This document shows, in pieces, positions 1-27,646 of a DNA stretch of 64,000 nt. Each line of letters begins with the position of its first letter. Positions within the stretch are counted from its first letter, which is position 1. The notes beneath the pieces were generated by a model. It worked only from the letters and a program-made list of their open reading frames with translations, did not search any database and was not told the DNA's origin. Origin of the DNA: Neophaeotheca triangularis (lineage: Eukaryota); contig BAAIJX010000001.1 in assembly GCA_054600435.1 (NCBI GenBank), positions 1-64,000 of the forward strand, given 5' to 3'. A program made the position numbers and the translations under genes.

Positions 1-2450
1 TATATAATTAGAACCTATCCTACTAAATAGTATAGACTTATGTATTATTCTTTTTAATTTAAAGTAATTTGAGCATATAACTATTAAGATATAGATTTTT
101 GAATGTTGAATAGTCTAAATTGCTATCTTATACCCCCGTTTGTCTTACGTCCCTATTCCCTATATTAATGTTAGCTCTTCGAGAATATCTAGATCTCTAA
201 TCTTAAAGGATTCGAGAAACAAGTCTCTATAGGATTCTAGTAGAGTCTAAGATATTTTTAGAAGCGAAGTAATATTATTATCACTCTTATAATATAGCTA
301 TATCTATATGTCATTATTTAGTAAGGTATAGGTAGGGAGTTAGCTATACATATAAGTCGAGTTCCGATTAGTAACTTGACATATGTTCTAGGATATATAG
401 CTTTAGGCAAATCTTTTATGATGCTAATAAAGGGATGTACTATTAGATTTAGTCTTTAATAATGTTAGTAGCTACTAGTTCGTTAATAGAACGATGAGGT
501 ATAAACACTAAGAACGGGATGTCGAGCATTAGCTATTATCTACTTCTATAGATTTGTCAAAATGCTACTAAAGCATCTATAGCTTTTCTACTAGTTAATC
601 TAGTTATGTAGACTACCTCTTGACTATCTCTCGGAGGTGTCTCGAATCTATTTCTTTAATTTTACTAACTTCCTTAATAGTATTATACCGTTCTTTTATC
701 CTCTTATTAAGATTAGTAAGCTACTTATATAACTATACTATATTGTCCTACTCTAGTTATAAGTTATACTTTTTAGTTTATAGGAGCTAGGTAGTCTTAT
801 AATGCTTATTATAGAGTCTTTTTACATTAGACTTATTTACTTAAGCCTCCGATAATAGCTTGAAGAACTTAGACTAGTCATTATTCGAGATTCCTAGAGA
901 GTTATGAAGGTACTATCTATATACTAGGCTTCTCTTTTACTCGGTTTTTTAATCGTATCTACGAATATCTAAGTAAAGCCTATTCCTCTCCTCGTTCAAA
1001 ATAGCAACTACCGAAGCCTTTACTTTCTTATATGTACGACCATGTCTATTACTACCTAATCTTTTCTACACTTGTTTTACTATAGTAGCTAAAGTAGAAG
1101 CGCCTACTTAGCGTAATATATCTTAAATACGATCTAGAGGCTTTTTGCCATAGTGATAACCTATAGTAGGTCCTATATATATCTTAGTTTTCGAGTACAG
1201 CTTAGTACTCTTAAAGCTATAGTCGCGCCTAATGAAACGACTAGAACTAGTCATCTCTTTCTACAGTAGAATCCTATATACTTTACCTTATCTAGTTCGT
1301 ATTATGTAGATATCTAAAACATAAACAAAAGGTATTAATAAAGGAGGTTTTATATGTAGCTACTAGATGCCTAATTAAAAGAGGTTATATAGCTAATATT
1401 AACTCTAGTACTAATAATAGGTAAAACCAAAATACTTCCCTTAATAGGCGAGGCTAGGGAACATGTTAGTAAGATATAGAATCTAGCCTAGTAGATAGTA
1501 GTAAGATAATTAAGCTAACAACTATATAAGTATAGACGATCTATGATTAAGGCGCTAAAAGTATAAGCTAAAGGTCTCTATCTTAAAGTTATACTCGTTT
1601 CTCCCTCCTATCTTCTAACCCTACCTTGTCCTGTTCTATATTTGTTAGTCCTTCCTAACAAATCCTCCGGATCTTATATATAGTTATTAGTTCGAACATA
1701 GTGCTCTTATAATATAAGGTCGTAAACATCACGTCTTACTAGTTTCCCGTTCGACGACTAGGGAGAGTAGAGGATAACGTCTAGTCGTTATCGTCTTTAT
1801 AAGTAACAGACGAGACGGGATTCATGTTATACATCAAAATATACTAAAATATCTAGAATCGTCTCTATTAGGCTAAAACAAATGTACGAGAGATAGTAGA
1901 AAGCATGTAAGCTTTATATACTAAATCCTACCTATAATCGGATTTAAGAACAAAAGTATTTAAACAAAATATAAGAGAGAAAGTAGAAAAAATGTAAGCT
2001 CTATTTACTAAATCCTACCTAAAATTAGTTTAAATATTAAGGGATACTATAAGGAGAGCCTATATAAGGAATATAGAGGAGCTAGATAACGAAGTCAGCT
2101 AATACTAATACGATAAAGCTCTAGTATAGTACCTCCTAGCTAAAAGCTTAGTTAACTTAAAGACTAATCGCTAGTTTACATAACTATACTAGCCTAAATA
2201 GCTGACATAGAAGCTAAGTACTTAGGCTACCTCCTCTATAGTAATCCTTACGGAAGTTTATTAATATCGGCCGGGCTATAGGAATATTCTCTAGATCATC
2301 ACGTTAGGTACACGTACCTAGTATCACGATCCCTATAGACAACACTCTACATAACATGCTTAATAACTAAGTATTGAAGACCCTATATAACATATTCCTA
2401 GACTAGGTTAAGAGAATATTCCTAAATAAAGACTTTAACGCTTTGTCAAA
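1..2450. mobile_element. RIP-degraded repeat/transposon relic (class not identifiable)
   Basis: Very AT-rich, saturated with TpA/TAG/CTA and visibly depleted of CpA/TpG. The ORF track shows no ORF before 2630. Composition shifts to GC-balanced near 2450-2650. Confidence 0.8.
1875..2033. repeat. Imperfect direct repeat, two copies, 87-bp period
   Basis: ATGTAAGCTTTATATACTAAATCCTACCTA at 1905 vs ATGTAAGCTCTATTTACTAAATCCTACCTA at 1992; the flanks also align. Confidence 0.85.
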
Positions 2451-19564: not shown

Positions 19565-20150
19565 ATGGCCCTAGCAAGTCCCCCTCCCCTACATCCCGTC
19601 CACCAAACTCCACTAACACCCCCTCCACCAGGGCGGCTGCATCCTAGCCCTGATAGCAATCCTCCTCCCCCCAGTGCCGGTCCTCATCCGCAGAGGCGTC
19701 AGCGGCTCCCTCGTCCTCAACATCCTGCTGACCATCCTCGGCTGGCTGCCGGGAGTCGTACATTCCTGGCTCGTCATCATCGCGTCGCCTTCGCTGCGGA
19801 AACAGCACCGCGAGCACAAGGCTTACGATCGGGGGTTTGAGCGGGGCGGTCGAGAGGAGGAGGAGGAGGAGCTGCCTGTCGTGTATCACGGGCGGAGGGA
19901 GCGGTCGAGGCGGCCGCGGAGTCGGAGTCGGAGTCGGAGGAGTGCTGGCGGGAGGAGTGCGAGTGTTAGGCCTGTGAGTCGGGGGTCCAGGGCTGTTAGT
20001 GGTGGGCGGAGGAGGAGGAGTGGGGAGAGGGTTTGGAAGGAGGAGTATGTGAGGCCTGTGAGCCCGAGGAGGATCGAGCCGCCTAGACCGCCTGAGCCGC
20101 CGTTTTATTATCGGGAGCCGGCGTATGCGGCGCGGTATAGTCGGCGTTGA
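19565..20150 (+). CDS. PMP3/RCI2-family proteolipid with Arg/Ser-rich tail; GC-AG intron 19574-19631
   Basis: Spliced MAL|GGCILALIAILLPPVPVLIRRGVSGSLVLNILLTILGWLPGVVHSWLVI matches the Pmp3 pattern. Confidence 0.85.
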
Positions 20151-20913
20151 GGTAGGGGGAGTGGTTTGGGTTTTGTATGACTTGATGAAGATATGAGGCG
20201 TTTGGCGGATGGTGTGAGATGAGTAGTAGTCCAGAAGGACGTTTTATTTCACGGGTGATTTGTTTGATTGCGTCGCTTGGAGAAATGGGCGTTGATTAGG
20301 CACGGAAGAGATATCTTTTGTGATTCTGCAGGACTATCGTTTGGATTGCTTACCGGTATTTTTGGTGTAGTATTACCCCCATCCCACGAGGGTGGATGTA
20401 TCGACCCTTGCGACGACGAACGTTCGCTCGCGCTTTTATTGTATCTTTCTTCTTACAAGTCGACACATGACCATGCCAGCGACGATTGTGCCGGTACGCA
20501 TGCGTTCATCCGTCTGTCAGTGTCCGCCCACCCGGGCTTTACTGGTCAAGTCTGCCATGTGAGGGTATAGCAAGAGAGGACAACACGTTACACCTGATTT
20601 GCGTGCGTCTGGGTTAAGCTGCAAGTGGTCTCGATTCGTTTCCACAAAAGTGATTGTGGCTGAGCAAACGCTGGGCGAGGTGCAGGTCCAATAATACCTT
20701 ACCATACCGGAATGAGGTAAGATAGGTAAGGTGAGGTAGGAGGTAGTCTATCCTTCCCGTGCCATTCGAGCAAGCCCCTCATTGCCTCATAAAGCTGCAT
20801 TGTCTCCTTGACATCAACCTTAAGTACACCTACGACCTTTTCTCCTCATCTTTCTCTCAACACACGACATAAACAGAAAACCACATCACACCGTCAAGCA
20901 TCTGCCAAGCAAC

Positions 20914-23236
20914 ATGGGAGTAAGTGACCTCTGACCCTGCACCACCTGGGATCGGCATGCTGTCCCCGTCTTCTCCACGACTTCCAGCTCTCGTCCCTTG
21001 CCCCTCCATCGTCGGCGGGGTCGAGGCCGACGTCATTATTCCATGGCTTAGGCCCGGGGAGTGTTTGAGTCGACAACACCTCCTACCAGACGACGGAACA
21101 CACGACATACATCTGTAGAGGGCGAGAGACTAATAGAAAGCGCAGTTGGCATCGAAACTCGCGGCGGCACAAGGTGCCCAGCAAGCCGTGGCAAACTATG
21201 CGCAGCAGTCGGGCCAAAGCCAGCAACACCAAGGTGGCTATGTAAGTCTATTACGTGGAGCAAGTTTGCTTGCGGAGGCACCTTCTGACGTTGAGAGCAC
21301 AGCCAGGCCAGCAGCCACCTGCACCTTACCAAGCATACCCGGGCGGCCAGCAACAGCAACAGCAACAACCACACGTAAGTTTGCCCTTTCATTCACCTTA
21401 CCTAGGTATTACCACGACACACCTACTCGCCGCTTGCCTTCCTTCTTATTCATCCTCCCTCGACGGCTCAACCACGACATCAACGACACCACTATCCCCA
21501 AGCCGACATGGGTCTCGCTTCGCGACTGAACGCTGGAGGTGCTAGCGCGCCTCCACCTTCTTCACTTCAGCCTGGACAACCACCATACCCTGGCGGATCC
21601 CCCGCGCCAGGAGGCTACGGCCAGCAATCATACGGGCGACCACCACCTCCCCCTCCAGGCCAGTCACAAGGCGCCTACCCAGGCCAAGCCCCGCCCTATG
21701 GACACAGCCCCCAACCTCAGTACCAACAACCCTACGGACAACCACCTCAGCAGCAATACGGCCAGCGGCAGTATGGGAGCCAGCAGGGACCACCAGGCGG
21801 CTACGGCTACGTTCGTTTGCTCACGCTCTCGGCGCAAACTGGCAATGACAATCTCGTGCACAAGCTGACTCCTCAATATTAGGGCGCTCCTCCTCCCGGG
21901 CCTCCACCTCAACAGCAGTATGGCGCTCCTCCAGGTCCTCCACCAGGACAGCAGCAGCAACAGCAGTACGGAGGACCCCCTCCAATGGGAAGCGCTTCGG
22001 GTCCGGGCGATGTCGCAGGCTATCAGCGCGAGCTCGAAAAGGCGATTCAGGAAAAGCAATTACAAGGCTTCTACCCACCTGGCTCCCCTCAGATCCAACA
22101 GATAGCGCAACGCGCAGCTCAACAGGTCGATCACTTATGCCAGGCGTGGCGCATCCCGAAAGAGATTGCGAATGATATTGTCAGGTTGGCTCTATACGAT
22201 GTTGTGCTGTACATTGACGACAGTGGAAGCATGAGCTTCGAGGAGAATGGTGAGCGCATCAAGGATTTGCAGCTCATCCTCTCGCGTGTTGCCTTTGCAG
22301 CTACGCTCTTTGACGACGATGGAATTGAGATTCGCTTCATGAATGGGGATGAAATGTCGGAGAGCCAACTCTCTGGGATCAAGACCGAACAGCAAATCCA
22401 ACAGATCATGTCCAACAAGCGTTACAAGGGGCTCACGCCATTCGGCACAAAGCTTCGAGAGAAGGTGATTGACGGCATCGTGGGTCCACAGCTCAGATCC
22501 GGGCGCATGCGCAAACCAGTCCTCATCATCAGTATTACGGACGGTCAGCCCGCCGGTGAGGCTTCCAACGCCCTCATGGACACGATTCGATATGCTCTGC
22601 AGATGGCACAGAGCCATAGGCAATACGGACAGAATGCGGTTGCCTTCCAATTCGCGCAAGTAGGCAACGACCAGAAAGCGACAGAGTTCCTCGCCAAACT
22701 CGACAACGATCCCGTCGTGGGCGATATGGTGGATTGCACGTCGAGTGAGTTTGCCTTCATCTGACCGCGGCCTATTCCTGTTTCTAATCACTAACCTCCC
22801 CACAGATTACGAAAACGAATCCGCGGAAATGGCTCGCGCCCAGCCACCCGTCGACCTGACCCCCGATCTCTGGATGATGAAGCTCATCCTCGGCGCCATC
22901 GACCCAAGTTACGACTCCAAAGACGAAAAAGGCGGCATGACCGGCAGCGGCCCTCCGCCAGGTGGCTACGGAGGCCCTCCCCCTCAGCAACAGCAGTACG
23001 GCGGCCAACCGCAGTACGGACAGCAGCAGGGTGGGTACGGACAGCAGCCTCAATACGGCCAGCAGCAGCCGCCGTATCCGCAACAGGGTGGGTATGGTGG
23101 ACCTCCGCCCCCACAGCAGGGCCAAGGGCAGGGTCAGGGCTATCGCCCCCCTCCTGGTCCGCCTCCTGGATCACAGGGATATGGTGGCCAGCAGCAGCAA
23201 CAGGGGTATGGCGCGCCTCCTCCTCCGCGTTACTAG
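20914..23236 (+). CDS. Gln/Gly/Pro/Tyr-rich vWA-domain protein (RfeF-like). Form A exons 20914-20919, 21146-21241, 21303-21374; form B first exon 21508-21810; shared exons 21883-22744, 22806-23236
   Basis: MIDAS motif YIDDSGSM, GLTP, ITDGQP and QFAQVGND. All junctions have GT..CTRAY..AG signals with consistent phase. Confidence 0.85.
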
Positions 23237-23789
23237 TGTGAAGGGGCATCAACCTGTTTGCCACGAGGAGGGGAAGTCAACCATGGCTGGCTGCCAGAGA
23301 GCTATTGAGCAGCGTTGCTTGAATGGCGCTCTCACACAGAGTGAGAGGTACAAGCTGGCTGGCTAGTCGTGGCATTTCTTTTTCTCTTCTTCAATGTGCC
23401 TAGTAAGGCGAGAGTGTAATTCCAGCCGTACCTTCTTGAATCCTCCTTTTGCGCGAAAATCTCCGTTACTAGAAAGGGCGCTCACTATCTCTAACCCTCG
23501 TTCCACCGATCATGCACCTCAGTCCTGCCAACCTCCACTTCTCCCGTATTCATCCAAAGTTCCCTTGTGCTACGACGACTGGCCTTCACGTACATGTAGG
23601 TCTGGGTACTCAGTAGTCTATAGCAGGCCCCACCAACCCAAGGAAGGATCTTGGAAACCGCGGCTAGGGTGGAGGTCTCGGCCTCGCGAGCAATAGCAGA
23701 CTGTTTTTAGCTTTTTTTTTTTTTTTAATCTCATGTGGAGTCGAGGAGTAGAGTGGGATCGTTTTGGGTTGATTGGATGAGGCGTTTAG

Positions 23790-24037
23790 CTAGGTTAGGT
23801 AGGTAGGTAGGTAGGTAGGTAGGTAAGACAGGTAAGGTAAGGTAGGTAGGTAGGTAGGTAGGTAGGTAAGGTAGATATGTTGTACAGCCGAGTTACCCCC
23901 TTCCCCCTGAGTACCCGTACCTAGTAGGTCATTGGCAATGCCTAGGTTACTTAAGAAACATCCCTCTCTCTCTCTAACTCTCTCCACAACTCTCTCTCTA
24001 ACTCTCTCTATAACTCTCTCTCTAACTCTCTCTATAA
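23790..24037. repeat. (TAGG)n microsatellite followed by a CTCTCTAA-type minisatellite
   Basis: TAGGTAGGTAGG... at 23792-23872; CTCTCTCTAACTCTCTCTATAA units at 23964-24037. Confidence 0.9.
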
Positions 24038-24218
24038 CAAAAGACAGTCACGGAGACGTATAAAAACCAATCCCAGGCAAAAAAAATTCCCTACCTAACC
24101 AAAACTACCAACTAGTCCTAGGTTATTTATTCATTGATACCTATACAGAACATACTTCCACTCGGCACGAGCCCGGAACATCACGAGAAAACCCCGCTGC
24201 TGAACGTTGACTCACTCA

Positions 24219-24406
24219 CTAGGTAGGTAGGTAGGTAGCTAGGTAGGTTAGGTAGGTAGGTACAGTACAGTATCTAGCGTAAAGACACGACGTGGCGAGG
24301 AAGACGACCACGAACACGAACACTAACACTGTCAACGACCACGACAGCAAATGTTGTCGACGACGACGACGACGACGACGAAGATGAAGATGAAGATGAA
24401 GATGAA
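24219..24406. repeat. (TAGG)n, (GAC)n and (GAAGAT)n microsatellites
   Basis: Directly visible at about 24220-24262, 24359-24380 and 24380-24405. Confidence 0.9.
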
Positions 24407-24617
24407 CTTATCCAGTTGTACCGCTTTGAAAGTGCACGCACGCATAGGAAAGTGTGCACCGACTACCAGAAAACTCCCCAAAGCACGACAAAACAAAATT
24501 ACCCAACCCCGCCCCCCCTCGACTACAGCAACAACCCCACCCTCCCATTAATGCCAATTTCCGCCCCGACCCCTACTTCTTCTTCTTCACCTTCCCAGGC
24601 TTCCCTTTCTTCTCCTT

Positions 24618-26900
24618 CTAAGCCGCCTTCTTCGCCGCCTTCTTCGCCGCCTTCTTCGCCGCGGCATCCGCCTTCTTCTTCTCCGCCACAGCCTTGGCAG
24701 CAGCCTTCTTAGCAACCTCGTCCGCCTTCTTCTTCTCCGTCGCAGCCTTGGCATCAGCCTTCTTCTTTTCCGCCGCCGCCTTAGCCTCCGCCTTCTTCTT
24801 CTCAGCCGCAGCCTTAGCCTCCGCCTTCTTCCTCTCCGCCGCCGCCTTAGCCTCAACCTTCTTCTTCTCCGCCTCCGCCTTCTTCTTCTCGGCATCCGCC
24901 CTCTTCTTCTCAGCCTCCGCCTTTTTCCTCTCAACTTCCCCCCTCTTCCTCGCAGCCTCCTGGGCTCTCTTCTCATCAGCCTTGGCTTTAGCCTCAGCCC
25001 TGGCAACCGCTTTCGCCTCGCCCTTCACCCTCGCTTCCTCCGCCCTCTTCTCCTTCTTCGCAGCCTCGGCTTTCTTAGCCGCGCTCGCGGTTGCAGGGGT
25101 TGCGGGCTTTTTGCCGCCGCCAAGCACAGGCGTCGAGACCGAGGGCTTGGGGCCAGTTGAAGGTGGCGGGGATGAGGTTACCTGGAGCGTGGGCTGGGAG
25201 GTTGCTTTGGCGGGTGAGAGTGGGGGCGGCGTGGGGGAGCTGCTTTCTTCCGCGATGGTGGGTGGGGGTGCTACCGTGGAGATTAGGCTTGGGGGACGTT
25301 TGAGGGGAGTCGGGGGCGTGGGCTCGGGTTGCGAGGGAGGGACTGGTTTGGGTGGTTCGAGGAGTGGGGGTGGATTGCCGGCTGCTGGGGTCGGGGTTGG
25401 TGGTGGTTGTTGGGTGAGTGCTGCTGTTGCTGCTGCTGTGGTGTTGTCTTGCTTTGCCATTGCTGGAGGGCTTGGTTCGCTGGCTGCCTGATTAGGTGCA
25501 GGTGGTTGCTGTTCTGCGACTGCCTCTACTGTGACTGCCTCTGCTGCGATACTCTCTTCCTTGACTAATGCGGGCTCAGTCGACCGTTCCAAGGCCACCA
25601 TTGCCGCGACGGGCTCAACCACTTGGACCGGCTCGCCGATGGGACTTGTGAAAGTTCGAACGACTGGTGAAGGAGACAGCTCGGCCACTGCCGCCGGTTC
25701 CATAACTGGCGTGGGCTTGGTCTCCACGATCATTGGCACCATTTCGACCACGGTCGCTGGCTGTTTGACAATGGGAGCGGGTGTGTCTACTGGGACTTCA
25801 ACTGGTGTAGATGCCTCGCCGCCGGCTACTGGTTGCTCGACGATGGGAGCCGGTGGATCTACTAGAGGCTGAGCAGACACAGCCTCCACGACCACAGGCG
25901 CAGGCTCGTCGACAATCGGCGCGATCTCGCGAGTCTCAACGATCGCAGGTAAGGTTTCGATCACTGCGACCGGAACTTCAACGACAGGATCAGGAACAGG
26001 AACGGGAGTCTCGACGACCACTGGCGTAGGCTCTAGGATGTCTTTGTTAGAGTGACTGAAGAAACACGCATCTGCAGAATTGATAGGGGGTACATATACA
26101 AGAATGCCACAATCGGAAACAAGACCGCAATCAAGGTGTGATTTTAGACCAAGGGTGTAGGTGGTAGGAACAACTCCGTGCTTACCAGGCTCAGGCTCAG
26201 TGACAACAACCACGGGCGCGGCTTCGGGAACGACATCGGGAACGACTTCCACAACCGGGGCACTTTCCGACACGTCCTCAGCCTTGGGCTCCACCACCAG
26301 TAAGGAAGCTTCCACAACTGGTTTGGGGTCCTCTTCCTCTTCCTCGGGAGTCTCTGCTTCTTCGTCGTCGGTCTCGGCTTCGACTGGTTCTTCCTCCTCT
26401 GGGGCGGGGGCAGCTTCGGATTCGGGGGGTACAGGCTCGGGCGCCGGCTCCTCGAGGGTTGGTGGTGGATCTGGCGTTGGGTCCGGGGGAGGTGCGTCTG
26501 GGGCTGGTTCGGGAGGAGGCTCGGCGGCGGGTTCTGGTGGTGCGGATTCGGGTTCGGGCTCTGGGGATTGAGCTTCTACGACGGGTTCTGGTTCCGGTTC
26601 TGGGGGTGGTGGTTCTTGTACAGGCGGAGGATCGGGCTCTGGGGGTGCAGCTTCCTCAACTAGATCCGGTTCCGGTTCCGGGAGCGGGGGGTCTTCTACA
26701 GCTGGAGGGTCAGGCTCTGGCGCGGACTCGGGTTCTGGAGGCGGTGGCTCCTCATCAGCCGGAGGGTCAGGTTCTGGGGTAGGGTCAGGTTCGGGAGGCG
26801 GTAGTTCTTCAGCAGCCGGAGGGTCAGGCTCCGGTACCGGCTCAGGCTCAGGAGGCTGCTGGGGCTCTTCGATCTCAGGTGGTGGCGGGACATCATCCAT
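24618..26900 (-). CDS. Low-complexity protein: Pro-Glu repeats, Val/Glu/Pro-rich middle, Lys-Ala coiled-coil tail; probable intron 26033-26185
   Basis: 760-aa ORF with PEPEP repeats and AEKKKAEAKAA repeats. A GTAAGC..CTAAC..TAG segment interrupts the compositional pattern. Confidence 0.75.
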   Translation of the reverse strand: MDDVPPPPEIEEPQQPPEPEPVPEPDPPAAEELPPPEPDPTPEPDPPADEEPPPPEPESAPEPDPPAVEDPPLPEPEPDLVEEAAPPEPDPPPVQEPPPPEPEPEPVVEAQSPEPEPESAPPEPAAEPPPEPAPDAPPPDPTPDPPPTLEEPAPEPVPPESEAAPAPEEEEPVEAETDDEEAETPEEEEEDPKPVVEASLLVVEPKAEDVSESAPVVEVVPDVVPEAAPVVVVTEPEPGKHGVVPTTYTLGLKSHLDCGLVSDCGILVYVPPINSADACFFSHSNKDILEPTPVVVETPVPVPDPVVEVPVAVIETLPAIVETREIAPIVDEPAPVVVEAVSAQPLVDPPAPIVEQPVAGGEASTPVEVPVDTPAPIVKQPATVVEMVPMIVETKPTPVMEPAAVAELSPSPVVRTFTSPIGEPVQVVEPVAAMVALERSTEPALVKEESIAAEAVTVEAVAEQQPPAPNQAASEPSPPAMAKQDNTTAAATAALTQQPPPTPTPAAGNPPPLLEPPKPVPPSQPEPTPPTPLKRPPSLISTVAPPPTIAEESSSPTPPPLSPAKATSQPTLQVTSSPPPSTGPKPSVSTPVLGGGKKPATPATASAAKKAEAAKKEKRAEEARVKGEAKAVARAEAKAKADEKRAQEAARKRGEVERKKAEAEKKRADAEKKKAEAEKKKVEAKAAAERKKAEAKAAAEKKKAEAKAAAEKKKADAKAATEKKKADEVAKKAAAKAVAEKKKADAAAKKAAKKAAKKAA

Positions 26901-27646
26901 ACTGGTGGGATTGACCCGGGTGTCTGGGTGTCCCCGTTTGTTGCCTCTTGGTAAGGAAGGTAGGTGGAGTGGATGCTACTTAGGAATAAAAGATGTAGTT
27001 GCACTCCGGATGGGGCGACGATGCTGTGAGCATAGGACTGCCTACCCGTTGATACGGTTCGAGAGGGATGGAGGGAGTAGATGCAGGTCTTTTAGTGATG
27101 CGGTGTAGGTTGATGGACGATGGAGGAACTGGAAGTGCAGAGAAGATTGTCCATGGTGCAGGTGGTATTGCTCGTGACATTTCCGCGGCTATTGGCATTG
27201 CGCTCTGTGATGGAGGCAGTTGCTGGCCATTCGTTGTGGCAAGAGCTTCGGTACTCGTCTCTGTGGAAGTCGCTCTCGTTCCAGACTTGAATCAAGCCAG
27301 AGCGGTTATGCTTCGAACACATGTTACTGTTGTCGCAACTGTAGACGGCTTCTCAAACACTTATACTGTATCGCGTATAGATCAGTGCTCGAAGGATGGT
27401 AATCGAGTGAACGGTGAAGTTGAGCTTGCTTACCCTACCGTTGAACCTACAGTATGCATCGGCTAATCTACAGCTCCTTCTCGGCGAAACGCTTCGTCAA
27501 TTGCCCCCGAGTATAATTCCAAGATGCCCATACGCACCTTCGATAGAAAAAGTCCTTGGATTGCAGAATTCGGTTTTTAGACCTATCCAAAAAGCTCTGC
27601 CTTTTTTCCCGCACATTAGGACCCAACCACCCGTCATGGCAACCCA

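Follow-up and report, generated by a model that had tools for sequence, protein, structure and literature searches.

An RfeF-family vWA gene of Neophaeotheca triangularis with two alternative first exons

Introduction

How does one vWA gene come to have two starts, and do both lead to protein? The question is raised by a 64,000-nucleotide stretch of the Neophaeotheca triangularis genome (the window), in which a sequence-only reading had found a vWA gene with two N-termini, each opening with an MGLAS(K/R)L motif, and had proposed that alternative promoters give two isoforms with different linkers. To our knowledge, fungi have few documented cases of alternative first exons that are both conserved and protein-coding. 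The RfeF family to which the gene belongs is already known, as are the mechanism class and some annotations with both forms. In the literature on RfeF that we searched (subscription papers and supplements lay outside the search), we found no account of isoforms, of a weak donor or of a copine-like fold.

Results

One gene with two front ends

The vWA gene is one RfeF-family gene whose two alternative first exons lead to two proteins with different front ends, by routes that we call A and B. Re-reading the window sequence, we located every element that had been named, each at its reported place:

20656..20664, + strand: CrzA/Crz1-type candidate site GTGGCTGAG, 258 nt before the A start, matching the AfCrzA consensus (PMC2818617)
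20914..20919, + strand: route A coding exon 1 (Met-Gly), from sequence and RNA contigs, with transcription from at least 20885
20920..21145, + strand: intron 1, 226 nt; junction 20919^21146 in RNA contigs of runs X2 and X4, acceptor 21145, branch CTAAT 21130
21029..21036, + strand: intron 1 CRE/AtfA-like site GACGTCAT, about 480 nt upstream of the B start, a candidate promoter B element
21146..21241, + strand: route A exon 2 (LASKLAAAQ...), from sequence and RNA contigs; donor 21242
21303..21374, + strand: route A exon 3 with YQAYPG motif, from sequence and RNA; strong donor GTAAGT at 21375
21375..21882, + strand: route A 508-nt intron, containing B leader, B exon and B intron; junction 21374^21883 in RNA of X1 and X4
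21375..21507, + strand: pyrimidine-rich stretch free of ATG and branch motifs, the putative B start region or 5' leader
21508..21810, + strand: route B first coding exon, 101 aa, MGLASRL..., from sequence, as in P0121; partly covered by one RNA contig
21811..21882, + strand: B intron, 72 nt, with non-consensus donor GTTCGT at 21811; junction seen in relatives
21883..22744, + strand: shared exon with P/G/Q/Y linker, helical lead-in and vWA domain with MIDAS; PF10138 above cut-off, fold searches
22806..23236, + strand: last exon, in which the folded domain ends and a disordered G/P/Q/Y tail follows; RNA junction 22744^22806, structure model

Route A opens with a 6-nt coding exon, ATG GGA|GTAAGT at 20914-20925, and joins 20914-20919, 21146-21241, 21303-21374, 21883-22744 and 22806-23236 into a protein of 488 aa with an arm of 58 aa. 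Route B joins 21508-21810 to the last two exons (531 aa); its ATG at 21508 lies within the 508-nt route A intron, its frame is open to 21810, where it has its own donor, and its exon encodes RPPPPPP at about 21637-21657. Both translations run stop-free through the acceptor at 21882, where the two routes had been proposed to meet, and the introns that end there have the branch CTGAC at 21865 and the acceptor TAG in common. The claim that no in-frame acceptor with a branch precedes 21882 also held: in-frame AGs (e.g. 21405, 21570) lack CTRAY at the usual distance, and the sole AG with a weak branch-like CTCAAC, at 21502, is out of frame from donor 21375. Two N-terminal isoforms, with different low-complexity linkers on one vWA domain, are supported.

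RNA evidence in this species

RNA contigs came from 4 of 9 listed runs of two studies, marine and aquatic metatranscriptomes, with X3 and X6-X9 left out. Among these 4 runs, 20919^21146 was present in 2, 21241^21303 in 3 and 22744^22806 in all 4. The two predicted junctions into the shared exon fared differently. One, 21374^21883, is in RNA contigs of two runs (X1, X4), with a matching loose end in a third; the other, 21810^21883, was in 0 of the 4 runs, for which contigs were what we read and absence of cover is not evidence of absence. Transcripts that carry A exons join donor 21375 to 21883 and skip B. Over the B exon itself there is a single contig, from X4 (297 nt, depth 4, 7 differences), which spans 21441-21737 and ends before the B donor; 2 of its 3 listed coding differences alter residues, and it could be B mRNA, pre-mRNA or DNA. 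Intron 1 and the B intron had no RNA cover in the 4 runs, nor had 20500-20811, in a mapped stretch that excludes the Pmp3 gene.

A public protein, P0121, assigned to N. triangularis by its source, is identical to route B. A second model at the same locus, P0429, fuses an upstream Pmp3-type gene with A and B, and conflicts with the RNA junction.

The two-start layout in relatives

We started from 80 metagenome loci, of which 38 had sufficient upstream sequence to be read for structure (the other 42 were transcripts or too short); 3 of the 38 were transcript-like, leaving 35 genomic loci. A exons with a second start in the last A intron were present in 28 of the 35 (26 by script; L033 and L063 by eye), so that the N-terminal layout is conserved well beyond the window; 6 loci are A-only and 1 has a single intronless start. 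The ATGGGN|GT first exon is also found in relatives, A-only ones included. Because the layout recurs in this way, and because B positions 5-7 match the A motif in 9/18 loci where shuffles give at most 1 (the loci are related by descent, so that shuffle tests, here and below, overstate independence), the layout goes beyond chance.

One relative species yields both forms. Its spliced contigs L006 (A) and L007 (B) diverge at the shared acceptor, and they show no difference in 186 nt upstream of the core and in 1313/1313 nt downstream. Further spliced B contigs are L011, L019, L029 and L073, and in Verruconis, Exophiala mesophila, Phialophora and Exserohilum a single locus is publicly annotated with both forms. 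Pairs of spliced transcripts that differ in their first exon and have the later exons in common are thus at hand for L006/L007 and the four annotated species; in N. triangularis only A is seen spliced.

The layout ranges over Capnodiales, Pleosporales, Chaetothyriales and Onygenales, and over Eurotiales as judged by annotated N-termini only. The annotated Eurotiales proteins are of A, B and fused types, all three occurring within A. flavus/oryzae (proteins only, no DNA), and the Eurotiales B forms lack an N-terminal motif. Eurotiales A forms (P0474, P0486, P0510 and others) have a second in-frame Met about 10-30 residues past the MGFASKI start; some Eurotiales models begin at this Met, which could give a third N-terminus via leaky scanning. 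A basidiomycete homologue, P0353 of Phenoliferia, has a B-like N-terminus, with a non-Gly, SP-rich arm.

We built a core tree with FastTree on about 250 residues, in which Eurotiales are placed too low and from which L026, L048, L058, L067 and L080 were omitted (introns early in the core). Four A-only loci could be placed, three with Pseudogymnoascus and one, L047, among two-start loci; L047 (2508-2964) is a secondary loss of B, as its sister loci L022, L025 and L044 retain the B exon. Such a loss would be in keeping with B as a decaying or silent remnant in N. triangularis too, with only A in use, as would the missing B junction and a B start that has drifted from the Pro2 of relatives. However, the 101-codon open frame, the GTTCGT donor, RPPPPPP and the ATG-free leader are all intact, and an RNA contig lies over B while intron 1 and the B intron are uncovered. 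We consider a remnant highly improbable.

A weak donor and a leader-like stretch before B

Locus statistics were taken over the window and 23 loci, after removal of the near-duplicates L023, L027 and L028. The B donor is GTTCGT in 21/24 loci (GTCCGT in L055), and this hexamer is at none of the 73 other donors of the same loci (last A 0/24, intron-1 0/21, C-terminal 0/28). The A donor and the B ATG are 80-261 nt apart, and over the 24 loci these 3925 nt contain 6 ATG, as compared with 17-19.5 per kb in introns and distal DNA and none in the A leader. The branch motif CTRAY lies between A donor and B ATG in 2/24 loci, versus 20/21 true introns, and the distance shows no frame preference (8/10/6). 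The leader-like depletion of ATG, the missing branch and the lack of frame preference together indicate that the stretch acts as a 5' leader and that B is not a cassette exon.

These same properties bear on whether a single protein contains A and B together, one motif after the other, as in P0429, which for this gene reads ...QPHVTDMGLASRL. There are fused models in A. fumigatus, Friedmanniomyces, Exophiala and others, and a Coccidioides annotation (P0279, P0282) lists, for a single locus, B and a second form in which A is spliced to the B exon. Yet, by our reading, P0429 requires a donor 4 nt beyond the consensus and AAG at 21502, where the RNA uses 21374^21883; branch motifs are near-absent inside B as well (4/24), and the join point of fused models differs between species. 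A joined protein is, in our judgement, very unlikely, and the evidence suggests that fused RfeF models, the A. fumigatus one for example, are artefacts, although an A-to-B fusion may be a minor third form in some lineages. The two-start layout accounts for databases carrying this gene as A, as B and as fused models.

The depletion of ATG extends over the whole stretch back to the A donor, which is equally in keeping with B starting at that donor or before it. Moreover, contigs of L011, L012 and L073 run unspliced through the A donor into B, as is expected from donor competition or from assembly merging, and they keep alive a rival with one promoter. Here, the weak B donor would take the shared acceptor first and leave the A donor unspliced, and B protein would depend on leaky scanning or reinitiation, unless the RNA were a regulated unproductive product. 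Consistent with this, L011 is spliced at A intron 1 and at B but not at the A donor, L073 begins 22 nt before the A donor with B spliced, and the A frame ends before the B ATG in 20/24 loci. In N. triangularis, however, the A frame left unspliced reads past the B ATG in a different frame and there are two upstream ATGs, and reinitiation past a long upstream frame is poor. The A start has a purine at -3 in 20/21 loci, the B contigs L007, L019, L029 and X4 start within the leader (contig ends not being transcript starts), and contigs of the L011 type are possibly assembly merges. We therefore regard the one-promoter account as unlikely.

The best overall explanation, which we hold to be fairly probable, is that two alternative 5' modules compete for one acceptor. 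B would quite likely have a start site of its own, at the A donor or shortly past it, and we infer separate A and B promoters. A B transcript that starts after the A donor would hold only the weak GTTCGT donor and have to use it; in A transcripts, the donor would be maintained weak so as not to capture the shared acceptor.

Candidate control elements

In an unbiased word scan, the top 7-mer upstream of A was GTGGCTG, in 12/23 loci (z 7.8, shuffle maximum 5.7), with 9/18 proximal windows containing it versus 2/18 and 1/16 distal ones. The corresponding scan before B gave CGTCAT as the top 6-mer, in 11/24 loci (z 8.4, shuffle maximum 5.3), a match to the AtfA motif (PMC12731236). This CRE motif was discovered by scanning; the GACGTCAT motif is not unusual within the window alone, and its position in this species is within intron 1 rather than directly before B. 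Intron 1 contains CGTCA in 11/21 two-start loci, where 2.7 are expected, and in 1/6 A-only loci. TATA boxes were not enriched before A or B. The rfeF gene of A. fumigatus is calcium-induced and CrzA-dependent, with a reported CrzA element (PMC2818617) that GTGGCTG matches. Our expectation, with somewhat more confidence than doubt, is that promoter A would answer to calcium via calcineurin and CrzA; more tentatively, and with doubt slightly the stronger, promoter B may answer to a CRE-binding bZIP such as AtfA. In four Pleosporales-like loci (L030, L031, L042, L048), CAGCCAC, the reverse of the CrzA-type word, lies 9-13 nt before the B ATG.

A copine-like vWA domain

The shared exon matches the Pfam profile PF10138 (vWA-TerF-like) at 31.7 bits, against a cut-off of 29.4 (E 2.2e-7). 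Its homologues are fungal and many are named RfeF, the RfeF-named matches having 58-61% identity. The MIDAS, defined as D-x-S-x-S ... T ... D (PMC7155146), corresponds to D213, S215, S217, T286 and D321 of P0121 and is invariant in 83 sequences, pointing to a vWA-TerF-like domain with an intact, and presumably metal-dependent, MIDAS. In the structure model, pLDDT is at least 90 for 270 residues; a short helix (3-11) and a disordered arm come first, the fold takes up about 145-430, and a disordered tail follows. We considered a strong amphipathic helix at the A start and rejected it, the hydrophobic moment being low (0.12).

Searching the PDB by sequence gave nothing useful. By fold, the plant copine BON1 ranked first in both searches (Z 14.6, rmsd 3.3, 201 aligned) with RGLG2 at Z 13.5, other vWA domains falling within about 1 Z of BON1, and the same families head the second search, Foldseek. 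BON1 and RGLG resemble this protein in having helices before the domain in the fold match and a DxSxS...T...D MIDAS; they differ in sequence (13-16% identity) and in the disordered arms found here. Copines have two N-terminal C2 domains, whereas here there are none (the model shows the N-terminal 140 aa, of low complexity, without structure, and the B exon has no Pfam match); RGLG has a C-terminal RING, again absent here (the tail, rich in G/P/Q/Y, has no Cys and is modelled as unstructured). With neither C2 nor RING, the protein would work like a copine or RGLG without being one.

If the database label of RfeF were taken at its word, a DNA-binding domain might be expected. RfeF is still labelled a transcription factor (PMC12781895), and in the accessible text of the literature it is one gene under that label, without named isoforms. 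Pfam scans of the core and the B exon, and the structure model, contained no DNA-binding domain. RfeF may have a cofactor role in transcription; the product would act as a fungal copine/RGLG-type vWA adaptor, not as a classical transcription factor. The A. fumigatus RfeF, Afu4g10200 (PF10138), has the same domain, Gly2 start, YQAY motif and tail, and the present gene shares a CrzA-type site upstream, as reported for AfrfeF (PMC2818617); its model P0474 differs in having A and B in tandem. Deletion of A. fumigatus rfeF gave no phenotype in the stresses tested (PMC2818617). A second RfeF copy in the genome was sought and rejected: there is only a distant vWA paralogue of 30% identity with an unrelated N-terminus, at L002:1181-2158 (G000 C7).

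N-termini and arms of the two forms

The duplicated MGLAS(K/R)L motif proved true of this species and not, in general, of its relatives. There, B begins MPL[AS][SA][KR], MPLS[SGT]K or MSKFSRL, or has no motif, so that a shared motif is not the rule; across the 24 loci the second residue of B is Pro in 10, Ser in 8, Ala in 2, Gly in 2, His in 1 and Asn in 1. The Gly2 of A is kept from chytrids to ascomycetes, and the MG[LF]AS[KR] start also occurs in chytrids, one basidiomycete and Taphrinomycotina. Among 428 proteins, 102 of 118 motif-bearing starts have Gly2, and the other 16 are Pro2 B forms. What is conserved is that A has a Gly2 start and B a non-Gly one, a contrast lost in this species, where both starts have Gly at position 2. 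In the tree, this species is the first branch of its clade (support 1.0). The other 14 B starts read in the clade are MPL, and those of Pleosporales outside it are likewise MPL, which makes regain the simpler reading: B in this species has probably regained its Gly2, and the isoforms probably differ here mainly in linker and control. A recent DNA duplication or conversion behind MGLASRL was rejected, as the codons differ at most synonymous sites (by eye).

We compared the arms at 18 loci for which both could be rebuilt (4/22 could not). The A arm averages 52 aa, has a YQAY-like motif in 18/18 and never SP; the B arm averages 130 aa, with 3.4 SP per 100 aa. RxxPxxP is present in 12/18 B arms and PxxPxR in 11/18, with 0 in A and a shuffle maximum of 8; we take these motifs to be SH3 ligands. 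The linkers are about 24% Q, 21-26% P, 11-23% G, 9-12% Y and 1-2% N, and the 'prion-like' label given to them is one of composition only.

A conserved Gly2 is typical of Gly-specific modification. The reported misfit to the strict N-myristoylation signature was borne out: MGXXX[ACGST] (PMC9018777) does not describe these starts, position 6 being K/R in 100/102, while three Arf-family starts of this genome satisfy it. RGLG1 has a myristoylated N-terminus and calcium-linked relocation (PMC7155146). Judging from the residues, N-myristoylation of the A Gly2 is possible, though we lean slightly against it.

Alternatively, Gly2 may not be lipidated, the N-terminal helix serving as peptide ligand or degron and the Pro/Ser start of B shortening half-life (Pro/N-degron) instead of changing location. 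In addition to the misfit to the signature, B retains positions 5-7 without Gly2, which gives the helix a role separate from the Gly, and the Pro2 of the B starts is apt because a second-position Pro makes a Pro/N-degron (PMC13082882). Against this stand the depth of Gly2 conservation and the myristoylation of RGLG1, the nearest fold. We doubt this alternative while taking it seriously; it concerns function only and is compatible with two promoters.

Origin of B

B would most likely have originated as a duplicate of the 5' module placed in the last A intron, in a common ancestor of Dothideomycetes and Eurotiomycetes. The retention of B positions 5-7 in three lineages favours an old duplication over chance, but several lineages have no motif in B, and the A and B starts may have converged. 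A YQAY remnant near the B start, in 6/24 loci and reached by 2/1000 shuffles, is a weak sign, its pattern having been widened after inspection. We rejected a split of one ancestral N-terminus into A and B, as 29 single-start outgroup proteins are not enriched for SH3-type or YQAY motifs.

Discussion

On the two-module explanation, the protein would be a metal-dependent MIDAS domain flanked by two disordered arms. A would present the ancient Gly2 start as a membrane or partner anchor on a short YQAY linker; B would present a longer, SP-rich linker with SH3-type proline motifs, usually behind a Pro/Ser start that precludes Gly-specific modification. Taken to its full extent, RfeF would be an overlooked copine/RGLG-like calcium adaptor with a two-input switch in Dothideomycetes and Eurotiomycetes: calcineurin-CrzA would produce a membrane-bound A with non-canonical myristoylation, an intragenic CRE/AtfA stress promoter would produce a soluble, phosphorylatable, SH3-binding B, and the weak donor would separate them. 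We consider the whole of this chain improbable. If it were true, this species would be a natural experiment, its B having regained the Gly2 anchor.

N-terminal proteoforms offer a parallel, with one gene giving different N-termini, possibly by condition, like A and B (PMC13082882); A. fumigatus CotA, a long and a short protein from one gene, is another (PMC11484838). Unlike these cases, the present gene has two 5' modules that look homologous and exclude each other (about 52 and 130 aa), with a conserved weak donor, the arrangement being kept in two or more fungal classes. The 'transcription factor' label of this CrzA target gives way to that of a copine-like vWA adaptor, for which the predictions are two start sites, two inducing signals and a contrast of Gly2 with Pro2/Ser2.

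Several features lie around the gene in the window. A Pmp3-family gene with an Arg/Ser-rich tail is at 19617-20150 on the + strand (PF01679, E 3e-16). Simple repeats (GTAG, CT, GAC/GAAGAT) occupy 23760-24420, between the vWA gene and the next, and on the - strand 24618-26975 is a 785-codon frame, Glu/Pro-rich with Lys/Ala repeats and without a Pfam match. At the contig start, window positions 1-2000 have a GC content of 31%, versus about 55% elsewhere.
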